NCBI GenBank assembly: GCA_003524085.1
Contig: DOEC01000006.1
Location: forward strand, 1,146 to 65,145
Direction: 5' to 3'
DNA: 64,000 nucleotides
Source of the DNA: Bacillota bacterium
Lineage (GTDB): Bacteria; Bacillota_I; Bacilli_A; RF39; UBA660
Of the stretch, positions 10,944 to 64,000 are shown in pieces (the first letter of the stretch is position 1; the number at the start of each line of letters is the position of its first letter). The notes beneath the pieces are model-generated. The model was not told where the DNA came from and searched no databases. It saw only the letters and a list, made by a program, of their open reading frames with translations. Position numbers and translations under genes: made by a program.

Positions 10944-11852
10944 CTAACTAATTTGCACAGTTTTATTTATTTTAAATTCTACTATAGTTACTTGATTATC
11001 TTTTACGTAATGAGCTTCAAACTTATTTACTGACTTTGTTATAATTATTCCAATAGTACTATTTTGAGTTATATTTTTTAAGTGTTCGTCAATATAGTTC
11101 ATATACGTTTTTATTTGACCATAGTCACTTTTCTTATATTCTCTTGATTTTATCTCTACTACACAATATCTACTTTCAACCACATTATAAAATAGATAGT
11201 CTATATAATTCTTTTTGTCTCCAATGTTAAGTTTATATTCTCTTCCGACGTAAAAATATCCACCGCCTAATTGTTTCATAAAACTATCTAAGTTTTCATA
11301 AATAATTTCTTGTAATATTTTTTCAGTATAAACTTCATAACTTTTATTAGGTGTTAACACTATTGGACTGGGGACACTTTGAATTAAAGAAAGTTCTTCT
11401 TTATTTAAAAGACTTTCTTTTGCTTCAGTTGAGAGTCTACCATACTCATTACTCTTTATTCTTTCAGCTAATGCTCTTTTACTTAAATTATCTCGTTTAG
11501 TAATATGAATATAATACTTAATTTCTTTGATATCTCTTAGTGATAATAAAATCTTGTAATGACTCCACGTCAATTGTCGCTCCAGTGGAGCGACTTTTTG
11601 AATTAATAAATAAAATTGTTGTATCTTATATAAATCTTTTTCCTTATATCCACTTCCAAATTCCTTAGTTAAAATACTTGCATATTTTTTTACTATTCCT
11701 TCTCCATAGTGTTTACCTGCTTCTACTAGTTCCCTTCCTATATTATAATTCATTGTAAGTTTTACATTATTTATCTGATAATTCTTAGCTACTACTTTAG
11801 CATTTCCATTTATTATTTCAGTCTTTATATTACTTAAATATTCGTCTATCAT
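10944..11852 (-). CDS. DUF1016/YhcG-family PD-(D/E)xK nuclease-like protein, tandem copy 1
   Basis: N-terminal YhcG-like block (NYNIGRELVEAGKHYGEGIVKKYA...QLTWSHY). C-terminal PD-(D/E)xK core (IDYLFYN...CVVEIKSREYKKSDYGQ). Confidence 0.7.
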   Translation of the reverse strand: MIDEYLSNIKTEIINGNAKVVAKNYQINNVKLTMNYNIGRELVEAGKHYGEGIVKKYASILTKEFGSGYKEKDLYKIQQFYLLIQKVAPLERQLTWSHYKILLSLRDIKEIKYYIHITKRDNLSKRALAERIKSNEYGRLSTEAKESLLNKEELSLIQSVPSPIVLTPNKSYEVYTEKILQEIIYENLDSFMKQLGGGYFYVGREYKLNIGDKKNYIDYLFYNVVESRYCVVEIKSREYKKSDYGQIKTYMNYIDEHLKNITQNSTIGIIITKSVNKFEAHYVKDNQVTIVEFKINKTVQIS

Positions 11853-11864
11853 AAATTTTCCCTC

Positions 11865-12773
11865 CTAACTAATTTGCACAGTTTTGTTTATTTTAAATTC
11901 TACTATAGTTACTTGATTATCTTTTACATAATGTGCTTCAAACTTGTTTACTGATTTTGTTATAATTATTCCAATAGTATTATTTTGAGTTATATTTTTT
12001 AAGTGTTCGTCAATGTAGTTCATATACGTTTTTATTTGACCATAATCGCTTTTTCTATATTCTCTTGCTTTTATTTCAACTACACAATATCTACTGTCAA
12101 CTACATTATAAAATAGATAATCTATATAATTCTTTTTGTCTCCAATGTTAAGTTTATATTCCCTACCAATAAAAGCGTAGCCTCCACCAAGTTGATGCAT
12201 AAAATCTTCTATATTTTCAAAGATTATTTCTTGTAATATTTTTTCAGTATAAACTTTATAACTTTTATTAGATGTCAACACTATTGGACTTGGGACACTT
12301 TGAATTAAAGAAAGTTCTTCTTTATTTAAAAGACTTTCTTTTGTTCCATCTGAAAGTCTATCATACTCATCACTTCTTATTATTTCAGCTAATTTTCTAT
12401 AACTTAAATTATCTCTTATAGAAATATTAGTATAATAATTGATTTTATTGATATCTTTTAAAGGTAAAAGTAATCTTATGTGTTCCCAAGTCAATTGGTG
12501 CGGCAATGCCGCACCTTTTTCAAAAAGAACATAAAATTGACGCATTCTCTTTAAATTAGATACAGAATATCCACTTCCAAATTCCTTAGTTAAAATACTT
12601 GCATATTTTTTTACTATTCCTTCTCCATAGTGTTTACCTGCTTCTACTAGTTTCCTTCCTATATTATAATTCATTGTAAGTTTTACATTATTTATCTGAT
12701 AATTCTTAGCTGCTACTTTAGCATTTCCATTTATTATTTCAGTCTTTATATTACTTAAATATTCGTCTATCAT
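11865..12773 (-). CDS. DUF1016/YhcG-family PD-(D/E)xK nuclease-like protein, tandem copy 2
   Basis: Over 85% identical to copy 1, with 12-nt intergenic gaps; differences are concentrated in aa ~68-130. Confidence 0.7.
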   Translation of the reverse strand: MIDEYLSNIKTEIINGNAKVAAKNYQINNVKLTMNYNIGRKLVEAGKHYGEGIVKKYASILTKEFGSGYSVSNLKRMRQFYVLFEKGAALPHQLTWEHIRLLLPLKDINKINYYTNISIRDNLSYRKLAEIIRSDEYDRLSDGTKESLLNKEELSLIQSVPSPIVLTSNKSYKVYTEKILQEIIFENIEDFMHQLGGGYAFIGREYKLNIGDKKNYIDYLFYNVVDSRYCVVEIKAREYRKSDYGQIKTYMNYIDEHLKNITQNNTIGIIITKSVNKFEAHYVKDNQVTIVEFKINKTVQIS

Positions 12774-12785
12774 AAATTTTCCCTC

Positions 12786-13694
12786 CTAACTAATTTGCAC
12801 AGTTTTGTTTATTTTAAATCCTACTATAGTTACTTGATTATCTTTTACATAATGAGCTTCAAACTTATTTACTGATTTTGTTATAATTATTCCAATAGTA
12901 CTATTTTGAGTTATAGTTTTCAAGTGTTCGTCAATGTAGTTCATATACGTTTTTATTTGGCCATAATCGCTTTTCTTATACTCTCTTACTTTTATTTCAA
13001 CTACACAAAAACAGTTCATTTTGTAATTGTATAAAAGATAGTCTATATAATTCTTTTTATCTCCAATATTGAGTTTATATTCTCTACCAATAAAAGAGTA
13101 TTCTCCACCAAGTTGATGCATAAAATCTTCTATATTTTCAAATATTATTTCTTGTAATATCTTCTCATTATAAAATTCATAGCTTTTATTTGGTGTCAAT
13201 ACTATCGGACTGGGTATGCTTTGAATTATTGAAAGCTCTTCTTTGTTTAAAATACCCTCTTTCGTTTCAGTTGAAAGTCTGCCATACTCATTACTTCTTA
13301 TTCTTTCAGCCAATGCTCTTTTGCTTAAATTATCTCGTTTAGTAATACTAATATAATACTTGATTTCTTCTACATTTTTTAATGGTAAAAGTAATTTATA
13401 ATGAGACCAAGTCAAAAGTTGCCCCACTGGAGCAACTTTTTGACTTAAATCATAAAATTGCTTCATTCTTGTTAATTCTGTAAAAGTATATCCCTTACCA
13501 AATTCTACCGTTAATTCCTTTGCATATTTTTTTACTATTCCTTCTCCATAATGTTTACCAGCTTCTGCTAGTTCCTTACCAATATTATAGTTCATTGTAA
13601 GTTTTACATTGTTTATCTGATAATTTTTAGCTATTACTTTAGCATTACCATTTATTATTTCATTCTTTATATTTTCTAAATAATTGTCTATCAT
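12786..13694 (-). CDS. DUF1016/YhcG-family PD-(D/E)xK nuclease-like protein, tandem copy 3
   Basis: As copy 2. Confidence 0.7.
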   Translation of the reverse strand: MIDNYLENIKNEIINGNAKVIAKNYQINNVKLTMNYNIGKELAEAGKHYGEGIVKKYAKELTVEFGKGYTFTELTRMKQFYDLSQKVAPVGQLLTWSHYKLLLPLKNVEEIKYYISITKRDNLSKRALAERIRSNEYGRLSTETKEGILNKEELSIIQSIPSPIVLTPNKSYEFYNEKILQEIIFENIEDFMHQLGGEYSFIGREYKLNIGDKKNYIDYLLYNYKMNCFCVVEIKVREYKKSDYGQIKTYMNYIDEHLKTITQNSTIGIIITKSVNKFEAHYVKDNQVTIVGFKINKTVQIS

Positions 13695-55313: not shown

Positions 55314-56117
55314 ATGAAAGAAATATTAATTTATGTATTTTTGGGAATTGTGCAAGGTTTAACCGAGCCATTACCAATTAGTTCAAGTGGACACGTTTTT
55401 GTTTTGAAGAAACTTCTTGGAATTACCGCAAGTGACTTAAACTTTGAAATTGTTGTTAATTTTGGTAGTTTACTTGCAATTTTGCTTATTTATAAAGACG
55501 ATTTGATTAGACTTATTAAGAATTTCTTTATGTATTTTAAGGTAAAGAATGAAGAAACTAAAAGAGATTTTAAGTATTGCTGGTTAATTGTACTTGGTAG
55601 TATTCCAGTTGGTATAATGGGATTATTATTTAAAGACATGATAGAAGAAAAACTTAATAATATGACAATTGTAGGAATTGCATTTTTAGTTACAAGTTTA
55701 TTTTTACTTTTAGTTAGTAACATCAGAGGTAAAAGAAAAGAAAGTGATATGAACATAATGGACTCAGTTGTTATTGGACTTACTCAAGTTGTAGCTTTAA
55801 TTCCTGGAATTAGTAGAAGCGGTTCTACACTAATTGGTGGCTTATTTAGAAAACTTGATAGAGAAACAGCATTAAAATACTCATTTATGCTTTATATTCC
55901 AGTCAGTGTTGGTACTACACTACTTGGTTTCAAAGACTTATTAGAAACATCTAACTTACACGACATCGTACTTCCTTATGGACTTGGATTTATTGCTTCA
56001 ATGGTAGTGTCATACTTTACTTTAAGATGGTTTATAGGCGTGGTTAAAAAAGGTAATTTAAAATATTTCAGTTTATACACTTTAATACTTGGAATTTTAA
56101 TTCTAATATTTATGTAA
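55314..56117 (+). CDS. uppP: undecaprenyl-diphosphatase
   Basis: LTEPLPISSSGH plus eight TM segments. Confidence 0.85.
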   Translation: MKEILIYVFLGIVQGLTEPLPISSSGHVFVLKKLLGITASDLNFEIVVNFGSLLAILLIYKDDLIRLIKNFFMYFKVKNEETKRDFKYCWLIVLGSIPVGIMGLLFKDMIEEKLNNMTIVGIAFLVTSLFLLLVSNIRGKRKESDMNIMDSVVIGLTQVVALIPGISRSGSTLIGGLFRKLDRETALKYSFMLYIPVSVGTTLLGFKDLLETSNLHDIVLPYGLGFIASMVVSYFTLRWFIGVVKKGNLKYFSLYTLILGILILIFM

Positions 56118-56179
56118 GCAAAAGAAAACTCTAGAATAATATCTAGAGTTTTTTAATAAAAAAAGCCTTATTTAGGCTC

Positions 56180-57715
56180 TTATTCAAAATAATCAATATC
56201 TTCTAGAAAGTCGTCGTCAGTATTTTCTTCTTTGGTTTCTTGTTCTTCACTACTATTTACTTTTTTCTCAGTTGTATTTTCAATTTCTACAGGCTCTTCA
56301 CTAGATGTTTCTTGAGTCTCTACAGAACTACTTTCTTTAGTTTCTTCTTCGTCTTCATCATACATTGAAGTTTTAACTAATTCTTCTTTTATTTTAGGAG
56401 CTTTATTTGTTTGTGTGTCGTCTCCTCTAGACCAAATACTTTCTATTTCTTCTTTTATAACATCAACGTTAACATATAAGTATTGTTGTTCATTATATAA
56501 ACTATTTATTCTGTTAGTGTATTCAAGTTGTTTAATCTTGTCTTCAAATTTACTTAAAGTATCTACTCCATCATTTTGAATTCTATCGTTAAGTATCTCT
56601 AGACTTCTTTCTTCTTTAATTATTTCGTTATGTAAGTTATTGTAGTTTATATCCAAGTTTCTTAACTCTTCATTAAAGTTTTCTATATCTAGTTCATACT
56701 TATTTTCTAAGAATTTATCACTATTTATTTCGTCGTTTAATAAATTTATGATACTAGCATATTCGCTTTCTAAGTTGTTTAAATTTGACTCATTAAATAA
56801 TAATTCTTCAAGAGTTTTAAGCTTTTCTTCTTTTTTAAGTCTTTCAATTCTAGTACTAAGGAAAAGATTTTTTGACTCGTCAATAAGAGTATTTAACTCT
56901 TCTTTTCTTTTTTCTATTCCAGTAATAGTACTTTTAAATGTTTCAATTCTTTTGTTATGATATTTAGTTTTCTCAAATAAACTTTCTTTGATTTCGTCAC
57001 TTGAGTAATTATTTTTTTCTAAAACGTTAGTTATATCATTTTTCTTGTTGTTGTATAGATCAATTAATTCAAAGATATTGCTACCTTTTATTTCATCTAA
57101 AGTACGTTCGTAATTATTTTTAGCACGTTCTGTTAAAGTATCAAGTAAGTCTTTTACTTCCACTAAAGATCTATTGTTTTTAAAAGCACTAAGTAGTTCA
57201 GTTCCAATTAATATAGAATTCTTTTCTTTGTTATCAAGTGCTTCATTTACTAAAGATAATTCTCTTTCTAAAGTGTTAAGATAAACTTCATCCTTACTTT
57301 TGTCTGAATCATCAGTATAACTTAAATTATCAAGTTTGTAGTTTACTACTTCTATTAGTTCTTCAACACTATTAAGTTCTTTAGTAATAACTTCAATGTC
57401 GCCAGTAGTTTTTGCTTTAACTTTGCATTTTAAAGTTTTATCATTTAGCTTAAGTTCTAATTCACTCTTCTGATTTTTTAAATTGTTTAATGTTTCTGTT
57501 AAGTATTTTTTTTCTTCTTCGTCTTTAATCTTCTTATCTTTGTCAATATAGTCGTGAGTGTCTAGCTTACTTTTAATACTATCTATTTCTTCAGTTAAGT
57601 AGTTCTTTCTTGACTCTAGATAGTCAGTATCTTCTAGTACTCTTAAGTCAGTTATTTTGTAACCACTCTTTTTGACAAGTATACCAATTAAGTCTTCTAA
57701 TGCACGATAGTTCAT
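56180..57715 (-). CDS. large acidic coiled-coil protein (hypothetical), paralog of the next gene
   Basis: N-terminus LVKKSGYKI resembles LVKKAGFDI of the 57720 gene; very acidic EE-rich C-terminus. Confidence 0.5.
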   Translation of the reverse strand: MNYRALEDLIGILVKKSGYKITDLRVLEDTDYLESRKNYLTEEIDSIKSKLDTHDYIDKDKKIKDEEEKKYLTETLNNLKNQKSELELKLNDKTLKCKVKAKTTGDIEVITKELNSVEELIEVVNYKLDNLSYTDDSDKSKDEVYLNTLERELSLVNEALDNKEKNSILIGTELLSAFKNNRSLVEVKDLLDTLTERAKNNYERTLDEIKGSNIFELIDLYNNKKNDITNVLEKNNYSSDEIKESLFEKTKYHNKRIETFKSTITGIEKRKEELNTLIDESKNLFLSTRIERLKKEEKLKTLEELLFNESNLNNLESEYASIINLLNDEINSDKFLENKYELDIENFNEELRNLDINYNNLHNEIIKEERSLEILNDRIQNDGVDTLSKFEDKIKQLEYTNRINSLYNEQQYLYVNVDVIKEEIESIWSRGDDTQTNKAPKIKEELVKTSMYDEDEEETKESSSVETQETSSEEPVEIENTTEKKVNSSEEQETKEENTDDDFLEDIDYFE

Positions 57716-57719
57716 ATTA

Positions 57720-59045
57720 TCACCAATCCAATTCTATTCTTTTATTTTTCTTTTCTTCTGCTTTTACTTCTTCTTTAATAACTTCTTTAGTTTCTTCTTT
57801 TACAGGTTTTTCTTCTAAAGCTAGTTCTTCTTTTCCTAAAATTTCTTCTAAACTTTTAACAGGTTCAGCTTTAATAACTTCTGGGACTATTTGTTTAGTC
57901 TCTTCTATTACTTCACTAGGTATTTCTTCTTCACTGCTAATAACTACTTCTTTATCAACATTTTTTTCTGTAAAAGTATCACTTTCTTTAAAATCATTGT
58001 TAACAACTTCTTGTTTATCCACATTTATTTTTGTGTTTGACCATTCTTTTATAAGTTCTTCTTTAACTTTACTAGCGTCAACATAGATTACATCTTTTTT
58101 ATTTTTTAAATAATCTATTTCAAGTCTAATCTTTTCTTTCTCATTGATGTCTATTATTCTTTCCGTCGTGTTAACGTAATTATCTTCTTTTAGTTTGTTA
58201 GATACATTATTCATTTTTGTAGTACATTTATCAAGCTCGTCTAGTAAAATTTCTTTTTTATTATTATTGTTAGTTCTGTTATTTCTAACATTTTCTAACA
58301 TCTTTTCTGCTTTTTCTAATGTATCTTTATTTCTTTCTTGTTTGCTTTCTAAATCATTTTTTGCATTTTCTAGTCTTTCGTATACTTCAAATGAGATGTC
58401 TGTATTTACTCCTTCATTAAGAACTCTGTCTATTCTTGTAAGGTCTTTATCTAACTTATCAATGTAATCTTTTATCTTATTAACAATGTTTACATCTTTT
58501 AACTCTACTTCTCTTAATTCGTCTAATTCCTTATTAACTGTTTTTAATTCAGCATTAAGTGAGTCTATTTTGTTGTCAAGATAAGCTTTGTATTTCTCGT
58601 CCATTTCTCTTTCTTCAGTATTCTTGTATTCGTAAGTATTAATTTTATCATTTAGTTCATTATACTTACTTTCAAGTTCATTAAGTCTTGTGTAAAGATT
58701 ACCAGCACTTAAGTTTTCTGTTCCTTTACTTGCAAGATTACCAAGAAGTTCTATTCTAGCTTTAACACTTGTATACTCTTTCCCTTCTTTATATGCATTA
58801 AGTAAGCTTTTACCAACTATTTCAGCGTTGTTTTCCCAATTTGCTTGTCTTAGTTTTAATGCATCTATTATTTTACTAAGAGTTTTTTGATTATTGCTAC
58901 CTTCTTTTTCACTTTGTAATTTCTTTATACTTTCTTTTGTCTTAGCAAGTTCTTCTTCACTATAGTTACTGTTAATGTCAAATCCAGCTTTCTTTACAAG
59001 TAAACTTACTAAACTTTTTATTGCTTCAAAATTATTGTTCATCAC
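57720..59045 (-). CDS. large acidic coiled-coil protein (hypothetical), paralog of the previous gene
   Basis: As above. Confidence 0.5.
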   Translation of the reverse strand: MMNNNFEAIKSLVSLLVKKAGFDINSNYSEEELAKTKESIKKLQSEKEGSNNQKTLSKIIDALKLRQANWENNAEIVGKSLLNAYKEGKEYTSVKARIELLGNLASKGTENLSAGNLYTRLNELESKYNELNDKINTYEYKNTEEREMDEKYKAYLDNKIDSLNAELKTVNKELDELREVELKDVNIVNKIKDYIDKLDKDLTRIDRVLNEGVNTDISFEVYERLENAKNDLESKQERNKDTLEKAEKMLENVRNNRTNNNNKKEILLDELDKCTTKMNNVSNKLKEDNYVNTTERIIDINEKEKIRLEIDYLKNKKDVIYVDASKVKEELIKEWSNTKINVDKQEVVNNDFKESDTFTEKNVDKEVVISSEEEIPSEVIEETKQIVPEVIKAEPVKSLEEILGKEELALEEKPVKEETKEVIKEEVKAEEKKNKRIELDW

Positions 59046-59178
59046 TAACCACCTTATTTTCCTATTAATATGATATCATAATTATTTGTCAATTACAATT
59101 TTCATTTTTTAGACAATGAGTTTACAAAAAAAGCTAGACAAAGTGTCTAGTTAAAATGTCTTATTTTTGTAAATTATA

Positions 59179-60177
59179 CTATAATGTTTTCGTTTCATTA
59201 TTAAGTTCAGTTTTGTATGAAGTGATAGCTTCTTTTAAATCACTTTCTATTTTATATATTCCTAATGCTTTAGAAAAACTTTGTAAGTCAGTCCTGTAAG
59301 GTATGGAGAATGCTTGGTAAATGTTGTTTATATATGCTTTATCACTCTTTAATTTATCATACATATAATAACCATACACACATCCGAAAATATAATATAA
59401 ACTTCTTTGTGGGTGTAAGTCTTCTATTTCACTAGCAAAATAATCTTTTATTTTTGATAACTCTCTGTTATAGCTTTCTTCAGTCATTTTCCCGTATAGT
59501 TTTTTATAACTATCATACTCGAAGTCTCCAAAAGTAAAGTAAACATTAATGAATGCCATAATACGTATTAAATAACTTTTATTTAAAGTGTTCTTAAACC
59601 TTAGTTTTCTAACATACTTCATTTCTTCATTGTATCCCATACTGGATAACTCGTCTTCCATCAAGAATTCAGTAAATATTGCTAGGCTTTCACTCACCAT
59701 ATGGTCAGTTGTATTTTCAGGTATTCCAACAGTGTAATGAGCTAGTTCATGGGCAAATATTACTGCGTCAGTTATGTATCCTGAGTTTGGTATAGAGATA
59801 AATCTAAAATCGTCTTTTATTCCTGCACATCCAGCAACTATACCTTCATGTATACTTGGTAAATAGTCTTTATCATACTCATATTCTCTAAAATCAATTG
59901 TACCATCAGATAATATTTTATCAATTGTTTCATTACTTATTGGATAGTTATACTTTTTAAAAATTTTTTTAACTAAATCTATTTTTGTAAGTAAATCAAG
60001 TCTTTTATAATTTTCTAAGTCAACTTTGCTAAACTTTACATCAGCTAATTCTTCTTTTAGGTCTAAATATAATTCACTTATTTTAATAATTAAATTCAAG
60101 TTAGCTAATGTAATACCACTTAGTTTATTTTTAGATAAAAATTCATCTAACTTTATCTTTAATTCTTCGTTAGTCAT
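59179..60177 (-). CDS. HExxH-motif protein (putative zinc metallopeptidase), paralog A
   Basis: ITDAVIFAHELAHYTVGIPE; about 35% identical to 60958..61959. Confidence 0.5.
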   Translation of the reverse strand: MTNEELKIKLDEFLSKNKLSGITLANLNLIIKISELYLDLKEELADVKFSKVDLENYKRLDLLTKIDLVKKIFKKYNYPISNETIDKILSDGTIDFREYEYDKDYLPSIHEGIVAGCAGIKDDFRFISIPNSGYITDAVIFAHELAHYTVGIPENTTDHMVSESLAIFTEFLMEDELSSMGYNEEMKYVRKLRFKNTLNKSYLIRIMAFINVYFTFGDFEYDSYKKLYGKMTEESYNRELSKIKDYFASEIEDLHPQRSLYYIFGCVYGYYMYDKLKSDKAYINNIYQAFSIPYRTDLQSFSKALGIYKIESDLKEAITSYKTELNNETKTL

Positions 60178-60922
60178 TCTTTTTAGTCAATCCTTCTATT
60201 GCTTTTAATACTTCAATAGGAAGTGCAAATATTACTGTGTTACTTTGATCACTACTTAAATCGTTTAGAGTTTCAAGAGTTCTTAAATGTAAAGCACCAG
60301 GCGCCATGCTTAAGTTTTCTGCTGCCTTTTTAAGGTTCTCACTTGCTTCTACTTCACCGTGGGCTTTTGTGATAACTGCTAGTTTTTCTCTTTCAGCTTC
60401 TGCAACACGAGCAATTACTCTTTTCATTTCTTCAGGTAAACTGATATCTTTTAATTCTACGTTTTCAACTTTTATTCCCCATGGGTCAGTTGCCTCGTCT
60501 ACTATTTTACATATTTCAGTACTTATTTTATCTCTTTCACTTAATAATTCGTCTAGGCTTACACTACCAACTGCATTTCTCATTGTTGTCTGCGCTAGTT
60601 GACTTACTGCATAATTAAAGTTTTCAACTGCAAGTATTGCTTTAGATGCATCAAATATCTTATAGTATAATACTGCATTAATTTTAATTGATACGTTATC
60701 TTTTGTAATTGCTTCTTGTTCTGGTACGTCCACTGCTTTTGTTCTTATGTCAACTTTTTTAAATGAGTCAATAACCGGTAAGATTAAATTCCAACCTGGG
60801 TTCATTATCTTTTTAAACTTACCAAATCTAAATTTTATTCCCCTTTCATATTCGTTAATTTGTCTTATAGAACTAAATATTACAATTAGTACTATAACTG
60901 CTACAGGTATTAACAATTCCAT
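60170..60922 (-). CDS. SPFH/band-7 (stomatin/prohibitin-like) membrane protein
   Basis: N-terminal TM and an SPFH core, with a C-terminal coiled coil (EAEREKLAVITKAHGE). Confidence 0.8.
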   Translation of the reverse strand: MELLIPVAVIVLIVIFSSIRQINEYERGIKFRFGKFKKIMNPGWNLILPVIDSFKKVDIRTKAVDVPEQEAITKDNVSIKINAVLYYKIFDASKAILAVENFNYAVSQLAQTTMRNAVGSVSLDELLSERDKISTEICKIVDEATDPWGIKVENVELKDISLPEEMKRVIARVAEAEREKLAVITKAHGEVEASENLKKAAENLSMAPGALHLRTLETLNDLSSDQSNTVIFALPIEVLKAIEGLTKKND

Positions 60923-60957
60923 ATTCTTCTCCTCCTTTATTTTAACGGTACTATTTT

Positions 60958-61959
60958 TTACCTTATTTTTTCATGTCTATTTAATTCATCTATTGTGTCA
61001 GCAACCTCTTTTTTTAAATCAAACAACGTTACTTCTATTGCTTTTAAAAACTCAATTAGATCGTATTCACTATACTTATAAGACTTTTTAATTACATTAA
61101 TATACGACTTATCACTTATAAATCTTTTTGCAATATTTCTACCTACTAGACATCCAATTAAGTATCTCATTTTAATTGTAATGTTAGTTCTTCTATCATA
61201 TGCATCTTCTGTTTCATTTTCTCTCTTTTCTAGAAAATACTTTACATCATTTATTATATAATCATATTCTTCAAAAGATAACCCAGGAAACAATCTAGAC
61301 ATTCTTTCTTTTGAAATATCTTTAAAAGCCATATATGTTTCTAAAACGTATAATGTGTTATAGATTTCTTTAGTGCAGCTATATGCATTAGCAACTCTTA
61401 TTTTTGTAAATAAACGTGTATCTTTTTGATAGCCCATTTTATCAAGATTTTCAAGCATTAAACTTTCTACAAAAATTGCATATATTTCTGACTTAAATGT
61501 GTCGTTATAAGATTCTGGACAACCATAAATGTAATGTGCTAGCTCATGTGAAAGCATTACTGCATCTGTAACTTTGCCATTGTTTGTTATAGTTACTTTG
61601 GGAGTTTCATTCCAAACCACACTAGTAGAACCAATAATTTTATCATAGTCACTTCTACTATTTGATGGGTCATTAAATACAATTACACCATTATTAATTA
61701 GCTTATCTATATCAATATTTTCAAGCTGCACACAATATTTAGAAAACAATTCTTTAGTTAACTTAATTGAACTACTAATATCCATGTCACTTATTTGTCT
61801 CATATTAATATCTTTATATTTAAAATCTATTAAATATGGTCCTAATTTAATATACTTTTTGGCTATTTGTATAAATGCGCCTAAATCATTTAATAATTCT
61901 TCGTCGTCTATTTTATCAACTAGTTCTTTTACTTTTTCTTTTAGCTCATCATCACTCAT
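60958..61959 (-). CDS. HExxH-motif protein (putative zinc metallopeptidase), paralog B
   Basis: VTDAVMLSHELAHYIYGCPE. Confidence 0.5.
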   Translation of the reverse strand: MSDDELKEKVKELVDKIDDEELLNDLGAFIQIAKKYIKLGPYLIDFKYKDINMRQISDMDISSSIKLTKELFSKYCVQLENIDIDKLINNGVIVFNDPSNSRSDYDKIIGSTSVVWNETPKVTITNNGKVTDAVMLSHELAHYIYGCPESYNDTFKSEIYAIFVESLMLENLDKMGYQKDTRLFTKIRVANAYSCTKEIYNTLYVLETYMAFKDISKERMSRLFPGLSFEEYDYIINDVKYFLEKRENETEDAYDRRTNITIKMRYLIGCLVGRNIAKRFISDKSYINVIKKSYKYSEYDLIEFLKAIEVTLFDLKKEVADTIDELNRHEKIR

Positions 61960-61963
61960 TTAT

Positions 61964-63034
61964 TCACTCCCCTATTTCTTTATTTTTCTCTATATTAACA
62001 CTACTAATCTCGTCAAATCTTTTGCTTATTTTATCAGTAGTAATATGGATATCTCTAACATCTTTGTTAACTGTCTCCATGTGTTGACTAAGTTTATCCC
62101 ACCTTTCTTTATAACGCATAAATTCTTCTCCTAGTTTATTTAATTCAGTGTGAATAATACTTGTATATTTATCTCTTTCCATACCCATTAAAATTGCTTG
62201 AACAAGTGTAAGTAAACTCATTAATGTAGTAGGACTTGCAATATAAACGTGCCTTGAATAGGCGTAGTTGATAAGGTTTGGATGGTATGCATTTATTTCA
62301 GCAAATATAGCTTCAGCTGGTAAAAACATTATTGCTTCATCTGATGTTTCTCCACTTATTATGTACTTACTTCCAATTGCATCAATATGTTTTTTCACAT
62401 CACTTTCAAACATCTTTTCTCTTCTTATTCTTTCTTCATCTGTTATTCCTTTTTCTAGCATATATCTATAGTTCTCCAATGGAAACTTTGAGTCAATACA
62501 AATTCTACCTAATGGAGATGGTGCAAAAACTATCGCGTCAGCAATAACGCCCGTACTTAAAGAATATTGTAAACTATAAACTTTATCATTCTTATCTCCG
62601 AAAACACTAGATAATATTTGATGCAAATTAACTTCTCCAAAAATACCACGACTTTTCTTATCCGTTAACACTGACTGTAAACTCACTATATCATTAGATA
62701 GCCCATCTATTTTCTTTTGTGCCTCGTCTATTTTAGCAAGACGCTCTAAAACTGACGCAAAAGTCTTGTTAGTCTTTTCAAAATTCACATCAAGTCTTTC
62801 ATTAACTTTATCATTAATCATATTAAGTTTGTGCTCTATTCTATCATTTAGTTTATCAAAGTCACTAGTTAAATCTCTAGAAAAATTTAACTTAAAATCT
62901 CCAATTTCCCTTATAATATCTCCTTCTACCTTACTTAAAGAAATATCATTTTCCTTATTCTTTTTAATATTTAATAACACTATAATTAACAATATTACTA
63001 CTAATACAACTAAACCTAATATTACATACTCCAT
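61964..63034 (-). CDS. rmuC: DNA recombination protein RmuC
   Basis: N-terminal TM, coiled coil and the RmuC core (ADAIVFAPSPLGRICIDSKFPLENY). Start at MEYVIL with a GAGGAG RBS; the promoter TTGACA-17-TAAAAT lies just upstream. Confidence 0.75.
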   Translation of the reverse strand: MEYVILGLVVLVVILLIIVLLNIKKNKENDISLSKVEGDIIREIGDFKLNFSRDLTSDFDKLNDRIEHKLNMINDKVNERLDVNFEKTNKTFASVLERLAKIDEAQKKIDGLSNDIVSLQSVLTDKKSRGIFGEVNLHQILSSVFGDKNDKVYSLQYSLSTGVIADAIVFAPSPLGRICIDSKFPLENYRYMLEKGITDEERIRREKMFESDVKKHIDAIGSKYIISGETSDEAIMFLPAEAIFAEINAYHPNLINYAYSRHVYIASPTTLMSLLTLVQAILMGMERDKYTSIIHTELNKLGEEFMRYKERWDKLSQHMETVNKDVRDIHITTDKISKRFDEISSVNIEKNKEIGE

Positions 63035-63159
63035 ACTATCACTCCTCATAATTCAATTTTAACATAAGCCAATTACATTGTCAACCTTTTGTTCGCTAAT
63101 TTTGTAATAAAAAAATTCTACTACAAACATCTTTCACTTCTCATATTTAAATAACAAAT

Positions 63160-63187
63160 ATAAAACAGTAGAGTTTTAGTTCTACTG
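63160..63187 (-). terminator. hairpin CAGTAGA-GTTTTAG-TTCTACTG with a downstream U-run on the minus transcript
   Basis: Read directly. Confidence 0.4.
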
Positions 63188-63314
63188 CTTTATATTGGTA
63201 AATACCTAGATCCGTTATTTACTCTGTTTCGGGTTTCCTACTAAAGAGTAAGGACTGACATTTACTGTATTCAAGTTATTTCTAACTTAGGAAATAAACT
63301 TGTTTCTCTACATC

Positions 63315-63533
63315 TTAGTCTACTATAACATTTGTTATGACTTTTCTTTTAAATTTAAACTCATTAACGAAATAATTTTTACAATATATTTCAAGCTTAA
63401 CTCTAGAGAAGTTGGCGGGACGCACGGCGTTAGTGTTGTCCACGTTGTTGTTGTTCAAATTCGCATTGTCGGAATTCCAGTTCCACACGTTCGCGTTCCC
63501 ATTGTTCCAATTGTTAGGAGACAAGGACCACAC
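63315..63533 (-). pseudogene. degenerate C-terminal fragment of a DUF1566/Lcl-like domain (Asn-rich); GC-rich core
   Basis: WSLSPNNWNNGNANVWNWNSDNANLNNNNVDNTNAVRPA matches the YWSST...W.V.F..G......VRCVR end of DUF1566-type domains. It has no proper start, and stops lie upstream in frame. Confidence 0.4.
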
Positions 63534-63740
63534 GAGTAAGGCAAGCTGAAGCCACGCGTACTTTATAGCTTATTCCTATATCAAAAGTGTTTTCACACTT
63601 GATACCAAAATTAAATTTTCACAACTGGCACTCACGCGCCAGAAAGTATTAGTCTTTCTAGCACAGGTTAGTCAGTATTCATTTTTTTGCTTACCACCAA
63701 CTTACGTCGGTGGAGCCGTCCGGATTACAAGAGTCTCAGT

Positions 63741-64000
63741 TTAGCATCCACTTGAAGTTTCCACTATTTCATATGGTGTCTCATATGTCCCATCTCCTGT
63801 ACTATATTTGATACAAGATTTGAGAGAAATGGCGGGACGCACGGCGCTTGCGGGGCGGACGCGGCGGTAGTCCAAGTACACATTGCCGGAAGCCCAGTAC
63901 CACACGTACGCGCTAGACCCATACCATTGAATAGGCGACAAGGACCACCAATATGTTGATACTTGAGAACCAGTACTATTACTAATAAACCATGCATATG
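63741..64000 (-). CDS. C-terminal part of a DUF1566/Lcl-like domain protein (gene continues beyond window end)
   Basis: The frame is open to the window edge: ...FISNSTGSQVSTYWWSLSPIQWYGSSAYVWYWASGNVYLDYRRVRPASAVRPAISLK... Contains a 55-60% GC patch in a <30% GC genome. Confidence 0.5.
   Translation of the reverse strand, partial: YAWFISNSTGSQVSTYWWSLSPIQWYGSSAYVWYWASGNVYLDYRRVRPASAVRPAISLKSCIKYSTGDGTYETPYEIVETSSGC

Follow-up and report, generated by a model that had tools for sequence, protein, structure and literature searches.

What serves as protease partner in a stomatin operon in which no NfeD can be found? Stomatin-type SPFH1 genes normally stand in an operon with NfeD (PMC2636767). 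The question is raised by a 64,000-nucleotide (nt) stretch of DNA from a Bacillota bacterium (GCA_003524085.1, contig DOEC01000006.1, positions 1,146 to 65,145), hereafter the window, where a stomatin gene lies between two genes encoding related proteins of about 330 amino acids (aa) with an HExxH motif, here called HEx1 and HEx2. Six consecutive open reading frames (ORFs) on the minus strand make up the locus, in the transcription order rmuC, HEx2, SPFH, HEx1, cc441 and cc511. An earlier interpretation of this DNA, made without database searches (the sequence-only reading), had suggested that the HExxH proteins fill the protease-partner role of NfeD, and that the block resembles membrane-associated defence modules. 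All six genes were present where that reading had placed them, SPFH being a true stomatin and RmuC a true RmuC. Under the interpretation preferred here, the stomatin operon belongs to the core genome, and a soluble zinc oligopeptidase with a miniature M3 fold would occupy the protease-partner position of NfeD and act at the cytoplasmic face of the stomatin scaffold; this interpretation is put forward with confidence and doubt in even balance. Two things are new: a compact branch within the M3-like gluzincin fold and, among stomatin operons, one whose putative protease partner is not NfeD; no paper was found that links either RmuC or oligoendopeptidase F with SPFH proteins or stomatin.

The HExxH protein family

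HEx1 (59179–60177, minus strand; 332 aa) and HEx2 (60958–61959, minus strand; 333 aa) both contained the motif HELAHY and were 30% identical across their full length (E = 4e-41 in pairwise comparison), which is far beyond chance and bears out the earlier claim that they are paralogs. They are members of a new family without a Pfam model. Neither protein matched any Pfam or NCBIfam model at E ≤ 0.1, including Peptidase_M3 (PF01432) and M3_N (PF08439); the 66 aligned family members produced no match to any peptidase Pfam model, M3 included; and sequence and profile searches of the PDB with the HExxH proteins were empty. When a profile of the two paralogs was compared with 1.84 billion representative proteins, only 134 relatives were recovered, mostly of 310–360 aa (HEx2 itself matched the family hidden Markov model at 1e-68). 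The family was sparse and patchy in its distribution, and mostly came from uncultured gut Bacilli with small genomes. No transmembrane (TM) segments were predicted in the HExxH proteins, which are cytosolic and of about 330 aa.

In the 66-member alignment, where mean identity to HEx1 was approximately 25%, the sole invariant residues were H143, E144, H147 and E163. Judged by its sequence, this HExxH...E site is of the gluzincin type. An AlphaFold2 model made from the same alignment (predicted local distance difference test, pLDDT, 92.1; predicted template modelling score, pTM, 0.91) had Pz-peptidase A (M3B) as its top Foldseek match, and its fold resembled gluzincins of M3B, M32, M2 and M3A. 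Alignment by hhalign with a true M3B protein of a related strain placed HETGH...GETASLVNE against HELxH...sE.lA..eE. The modelled fold is that of M3B oligoendopeptidase F reduced to its catalytic core, at roughly half the size. The label 'zinc-peptidase-type' used in the sequence-only reading was upheld by the four invariant zinc/catalytic residues and by the gluzincin fold; the families that it had named as candidates (M48, M78/ImmA and DUF955) appeared in no search, the fold being M3-like instead.

The oligoendopeptidase F/Pz-peptidase group (MEROPS M3B; PDB 2h1j, 3ce2, 2qr4 and 3ahm) shares with the HEx proteins a gluzincin HExxH, followed downstream by a glutamate ligand within an E-x-x-A/S-x-x-x-E helix, and a cytosolic location without signal peptide. 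However, the HEx proteins have about 330 aa, rather than the 565–600 aa or so of M3B, they show 10–12% identity to that group and lack the Peptidase_M3 and Peptidase_M3_N matches, and the spacing of their site is HExxH-x15-E. Four representatives (P0132, P0137, P0160 and P0249; 675–712 aa) consisted of two complete domains fused in tandem, and HExxH was intact in both. These natural fusions suggest that the functional unit is probably a dimer, which could rebuild the closed chamber that an M3 chain of approximately 600 aa forms alone. The peptidase nature of the HExxH proteins is supported, and they are probably active zinc oligopeptidases; the result defines a rare, unannotated family in which the zinc peptidase of M3/neurolysin fold is halved in size.

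Two further observations concern individual members. The tandem fusion P0132 is carried by locus L004. In L027 (3854–7008), which belongs to a lineage marked by the motif HELSHYRN, two paralogous genes in tandem (342 and 357 aa) lie downstream of uvrA, and the HExxH gene overlaps their end; the N-termini of these paralogs read ...IYSNINYNTSE... and ...IYGNISYNTNE....

Coupling to the stomatin gene

The SPFH gene (60170–60922, minus strand; 250 aa) was preceded by its own strong Shine-Dalgarno sequence and encoded a protein with a match to Band_7 (PF01145; 2e-42). Similarity was found to human stomatin (1e-58), PH1511 (2e-56), QmcA (4e-40), HflK (9e-14) and prohibitin (8e-6); on these scores the protein is of the stomatin type, closer to stomatin than to HflK/C or prohibitin. 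A TM-like hydrophobic segment, identified by hydropathy at residues 1–19, provides a putative N-terminal membrane anchor, and the Lys/Arg-rich stretch behind it indicates that the SPFH domain would face the cytoplasm. The first gene of the operon, rmuC (61964–63049, minus strand; 361 aa), encoded a protein with a hydrophobic segment at its N-terminus, a coiled-coil stretch and an RmuC domain (PF02646; 2.8e-56, model positions 2–290 of 291). Its true start is likely to be at 63034, since relatives begin at that methionine; this was also the end coordinate of the block in the sequence-only reading. RmuC was 87–99% identical in relatives, with a ratio of nonsynonymous to synonymous substitution (dN/dS) of 0.02–0.07; the corresponding values for stomatin among close relatives were 0.04–0.08, and both genes are under strong purifying selection.

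The start of HEx1 overlapped the stomatin stop by 8 nt (ATGACTAA). No NfeD was found in the six proteins, in the small window ORFs that were tested, or in the gene calls of about 45 related loci; the remainder of the genome was not searched. These loci, gathered from tight subfamily alignments, showed the order rmuC–stomatin–HExxH followed by a coiled-coil gene pair (ccA–ccB) in at least six species-level lineages, with the 8-nt overlap kept, as was a terminator-like hairpin 3' of the HExxH gene. All six genes were retained in 13 strains of the window's species, within which diversity was ordinary (pi = 0.8–1.7%). The five-gene order without HEx2 was observed in L014 (Clostridium sp. CAG:628), L015, L016, L017 and in 20 strains of two further species. 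The earlier description of the stomatin gene as flanked on both sides by HExxH genes thus holds for the window's species group, but not for L014–L017 and L045–L064, where HEx2 is absent. The block lies in conserved core synteny (with bacA, a dacB-like PBP5 gene and rluB), apparently not in an island, and its core genes occurred in every relative. The hosts are uncultured gut Bacilli with small genomes of low GC, and contigs of relatives reached about 1.2 Mb. A more distant lineage, L009/L010, had a stomatin 76% identical to that of the window and an HExxH gene two genes downstream. A 160-aa protein of L009 was considered as a substitute for NfeD and rejected, being HAD/NT5C-like with a DxDGV motif.

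Under the preferred interpretation, the stomatin-coupled HExxH copy would be made together with a membrane-anchored, cytoplasm-facing stomatin oligomer, and the peptidase would act at or beneath the stomatin scaffold, in the place held by NfeD/STOPP in classical stomatin operons. Its substrates may be short peptides or the exposed tails of membrane-proximal proteins, possibly the C-terminus of stomatin. The stomatin-NfeD operons (PH1511/PH1510 STOPP in Pyrococcus; QmcA-YbbJ in E. coli; SPFH1-NfeD1, Hinderhofer et al. 2009) are alike in that a stomatin gene is tightly coupled to the gene of a protease-like partner. They differ in that the putative partner here is a soluble, M3-like zinc metallopeptidase, rather than a membrane-bound NfeD bearing either an OB-fold domain or a serine protease domain like that of ClpP; that its gene is downstream with an 8-nt overlap, while rmuC comes first in the operon; and that it is allelically exchangeable. 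HflK/C-FtsH, which combines an SPFH scaffold with a zinc (HExxH) protease, offers an earlier example of a metalloprotease organised by an SPFH cage, although the association described here is a putative one, the SPFH protein is of the stomatin type (HflK at 9e-14 only), and the peptidase has neither an AAA+ module nor a TM segment. If correct, the locus would provide a testable example of a stomatin operon whose protease partner is something other than NfeD, and would bear on what prokaryotic stomatin cages organise.

Replacement of HExxH alleles

The HExxH genes fell into at least four discrete types (HEx1-type, P0124-type, P0126-type and HEx2), of which the HEx1-type was the common one, being 72–74% identical in 20 strains. 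Between the window and L017, identity was 90% for RmuC, 95% for stomatin, 78% for cc441, 73% for cc511 and 84% for BacA, while the HExxH protein of L017 was only 29% identical to HEx1; at the DNA level, similarity ended about 15 codons into HEx1 (60130) and returned at 59176, just beyond the stop codon. Similarly, L016 was 93%, 72% and 65% identical to the window in stomatin, cc441 and cc511, respectively, but 36% identical in the HExxH protein. The borders were gene-precise in a comparison of L014 with L016, where flanks of 97.7–98.0% identity across 7 kb enclosed HExxH alleles of only 36% identity. A 60-nt identity profile of these two loci remained at 97–100% in stomatin and up to ~35 nt into the HExxH gene, dropped to 43–60% across the HExxH ORF, and was 90–98% right after the stop. 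The active-site region, at 73%, was the only DNA island conserved between the swapped alleles. A second kind of pattern concerned L014 and L055, whose HExxH proteins were identical from approximately codon 61 on while 19 of the first 60 residues differed, with a ratio of nonsynonymous to synonymous differences (pN/pS) of about 1 in codons 1–30; this mosaic indicates either intragenic recombination or a variable N-terminal module.

Among close relatives, dN/dS was 0.17–0.23 for HEx1 and HEx2, against 0.02–0.08 for RmuC and stomatin. Purifying selection acts on the peptidase genes, though in relaxed form, and gene-wide positive selection was rejected at a dN/dS of about 0.2. Mutagenesis by a diversity-generating retroelement (DGR) was also rejected as the source of HExxH divergence, because the differences extended over the whole ORF and were not adenine-specific, and because no reverse-transcriptase motif occurred anywhere in the 64-kb window. 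In some strains the gene itself appeared damaged: it seems split in L061 (3366–4365; 69 + 273 aa) and truncated in L062 (3367–4248; 293 aa), and L062 also had an insertion sequence (IS; rve) behind cc511. The two disruptions are either real pseudogenes or assembly errors. Of the parts of the operon, the peptidase is the exchangeable one that evolves fast: deeply diverged alleles have taken its place, it has been duplicated (HEx2), and some strains carry what appear to be disrupted copies. Gene-precise replacement within an operon that is otherwise 98% identical amounts to a natural experiment on which part of an SPFH module is pressed to change.

These data also bear on whether the HExxH proteins are peptidases at all. 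Their gluzincin fold might have been reused for another metal-dependent or binding function, or the genes might be decaying, as the disrupted copies in two strains, the lack of any sequence family match and the half-M3 size (so that one chain cannot form the substrate channel of PepF) would allow. Yet the four zinc/catalytic residues were invariant despite an overall identity of about 25%, a dN/dS near 0.2 signifies purifying selection, and it was the active site that alone stayed recognizable in the DNA of swapped alleles. A non-peptidase function is accordingly given very little credence.

Evidence for and against a partnership

A partnership between stomatin and HEx1 is plausible. It is supported by the 8-nt overlap, by the occurrence of the pair in about 45 loci of at least six lineages, by an arrangement that survived allele replacement and by the failure to find NfeD. 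Several observations weigh against it. The evidence for the partnership consists of adjacency and translational coupling, and that for catalysis of motif and fold; the promoters and terminators described below are consensus predictions. Stomatin was 97–100% identical in DNA across the swap; its failure to co-vary with the HExxH allele speaks against an interface that is tight and specific to one allele. The apparent disruption of the HExxH gene in L061 and L062 implies that it is dispensable. In L009, the HAD/NT5C-like gene intervenes between stomatin and HExxH. Finally, most family members elsewhere were lone genes with no SPFH nearby: in L005–L008 the HExxH gene adjoined SpoU, and in L011 it stood behind a DUF6273 protein. 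SPFH, RmuC and coiled-coil genes were absent within 6 kb in 17 of 17 loci of the HELSHYRN subfamily, where the neighbours were housekeeping genes (rimM-trmD-rplS-HExxH-lepB, pyrG-HExxH, trx-HExxH and RNase J).

Such neighbourhoods would be expected if the proteins were general cytosolic oligopeptidases, a streamlined substitute for PepF in gut Bacilli of reduced genome, and co-transcription with stomatin a historical accident of one clade. The lack of co-variation points the same way, and an accessory full-length M3 peptidase encoded near the block in L003 and L012 would fit with interchangeable peptidase capacity. Against an accident, the 8-nt overlap persisted in about 45 loci and outlasted two independent allele replacements, the second lineage (L009/L010) keeps stomatin and HExxH close together, and a housekeeping enzyme is not expected to be swapped for alleles of 29–36% identity amid flanks of 98% identity. 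Adjacency without partnership is the main rival interpretation, regarded as possible, if on the whole doubtful. For the preferred interpretation, the neighbourhood survey means that stomatin–HExxH pairing, as proposed by the sequence-only reading, occurs with its 8-nt overlap in every relative of the clade, but is not a property of the family. Likewise, the protease-partner role remains plausible, given the conserved coupling and the absence of a detectable NfeD, in a clade-restricted form. Were the partnership spurious, what would remain of the finding is a new family of peptidases and a hot spot of recombination.

The junction between rmuC and stomatin

HEx2 begins 4 nt past the rmuC stop, as an extra paralog between rmuC and the stomatin gene. 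It was restricted to the window's species group, including L012 and L013, and had no relatives above 34% identity outside its own cluster; HEx2 is a lineage-specific addition. In L014 (2849–3646), L045 and L060 the same junction contained a 265-aa KilA-N gene, representing a polymorphic insertion that is absent from the window. Its product is unrelated in sequence to the HExxH proteins, although it occupies exactly the slot of HEx2, and matched over its full length the PADLOC candidate PDC-S22 (E = 5e-126) as well as the transcriptional regulator phrog_2657 (3e-59). PDC-S22 is only a bioinformatic defence candidate. In L060, rmuC was fragmented beside the KilA-N insertion.

The presence of this gene is one of several features that could be understood if the locus were a conflict or defence module, in which a protease tethered to the membrane senses foreign targets that evolve fast, or cleaves them, with the RmuC nuclease, the coiled-coil proteins or both as effectors or scaffolds. 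Discrete and deeply diverged HExxH alleles were swapped gene-precisely between near-identical backgrounds, the N-terminus was mosaic with pN/pS near 1 (L014 versus L055), a DGR-diversified surface protein was encoded directly upstream, and the family was sparse and patchy. More specifically, a stomatin scaffold might tether an allelically diversified mini-M3 peptidase, recognising foreign peptides or proteins that change quickly, whether derived from phage, bacteriocins or competitors. We consider this improbable; if true, the rmuC-stomatin-HExxH operon with its cassette slots (HEx2 and PDC-S22) would be a new membrane-associated immunity or surveillance system, and the allele swaps an arms race.

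Database evidence told against a defensive role. PADLOC-DB 2.0 gave no match for HEx1, HEx2, SPFH, cc511, P0124, P0126, P0132 or P0174, and only generic matches (coiled-coil or RmuC-domain) for cc441 and RmuC; PHROGs likewise returned nothing for the HExxH proteins. No phage or plasmid homologs of HEx1 were found, and Foldseek identified no viral structural relatives. Moreover, the core genes occurred in every relative, in core synteny rather than an island; dN/dS was not above 1 across the gene and diversity within the species was ordinary; most family members resided in housekeeping contexts; and PDC-S22 is itself only a candidate. A defence module is unlikely on this evidence, and the resemblance to one that the sequence-only reading had seen proved weak, there being no specific PADLOC match and a setting of core synteny, though one with a variable rmuC/stomatin junction and a HExxH slot that swaps alleles.

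An accessory cassette was observed at a different position, between cc511 and bacA, in some strains of the window's species group (L003, 14079–16222; L012, 9286–11426), although not in the window. It encoded a 584-aa protein of full M3 length that resembles oligoendopeptidase F (PF01432, 1e-40), along with a DUF7736 protein (121 aa), and had no PADLOC match.

Transcription units and the coiled-coil genes

Predicted signals divided the six genes into what are probably two units, rmuC-(HEx2)-stomatin-HEx1 and cc441-cc511. Directly upstream of rmuC was a promoter-like site (TTGACA-17-TGnTAAAAT; 63056–63084, minus strand) with 11 of 12 consensus matches, which in L017 was a 12/12 match; a terminator-like hairpin at 63157–63196 ends the unit upstream of it. 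Directly 3' of HEx1, a terminator-like hairpin CTAGACACTTTGTCTAG followed by a T-run (59134–59150, minus strand) is probably the end of the first operon, and the same hairpin was kept in L017 behind its non-orthologous HExxH allele. Since this hairpin and another promoter-like site (TTGTAA-17-TGnTATCAT; 59070–59098, minus strand) lie between HEx1 and cc441, a division at this point is indicated. Two terminator-like hairpins (56125–56181, minus strand) close the cc441-cc511 unit, and the convergent gene bacA/uppP comes next. No Rfam elements were detected in 55800–64000.

The coiled-coil genes were treated as a separate, clade-specific unit. The acidic coiled-coil protein cc441 (57720–59045, minus strand; 441 aa) bears a conserved motif at its N-terminus and further contains a long helical hairpin and a disordered, acidic tail with IELDW as its last residues; cc511 (56180–57715, minus strand; 511 aa), a second acidic coiled-coil protein that starts 4 nt past cc441, had a tail ending in DIDYFE. 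An AlphaFold2 model of cc441 (pLDDT 58) was confident only for a central, antiparallel helical hairpin of about 200 residues, the last 100 residues or so being disordered and acidic. BLASTP between the two proteins detected a single shared element, the 20-residue N-terminal motif (E = 1e-3). Profiles of their orthologs gave a weak collinear hhalign match (E = 1.3e-4, probability 54%, 112 columns), and the motifs ahead of the acidic tails could be matched (YVDA.KVKEELI.EW versus YVNVDVIKEEIESIW). They are probably distant paralogs by these resemblances; the paralogy asserted by the sequence-only reading thus gains short shared motifs and a weak profile match, but is not proven and would at best be distant. 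Searches of Pfam, NCBIfam, PHROGs and PDB sequences with either protein had no matches, and no homologs from outside the clade were among the matches listed. Among close relatives the two genes had a dN/dS of 0.07–0.11, and they did not co-vary with the peptidase allele.

Sequences upstream of rmuC and other features

A pair of repeats of the DGR type, variable repeat (VR) and template repeat (TR), was observed on the minus strand upstream of rmuC (63395–63955). The VR formed the 3' end of an ORF extending past the edge of the window, where it encodes ...WWSLSPIQWYGSSAYVWYWASGNVYLDYRRVRPASAVRPAISLKSC..., and was alignable with an A-rich (AAC) repeat approximately 420 nt downstream. Mismatches between VR and TR fell mostly at TR adenines, and both copies had the common end GCCGTGCGTCCCGCC. 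In relatives, the gene upstream of rmuC varied between 335 and 768 aa and carried DUF6273. The DGR target gene ended early (...SSFW*) in L001 (5448–6779) and L002 (5325–6647), and in L001 the reading frame past this point continued straight into TR-like sequence, which suggests either that VR was collapsed onto TR during assembly or that a VR-TR deletion is real. Elsewhere in the window, three consecutive minus-strand ORFs of exactly 302 aa each (10944–11852, 11865–12773 and 12786–13694) were found at 10944–13694, an apparent tandem triplication.

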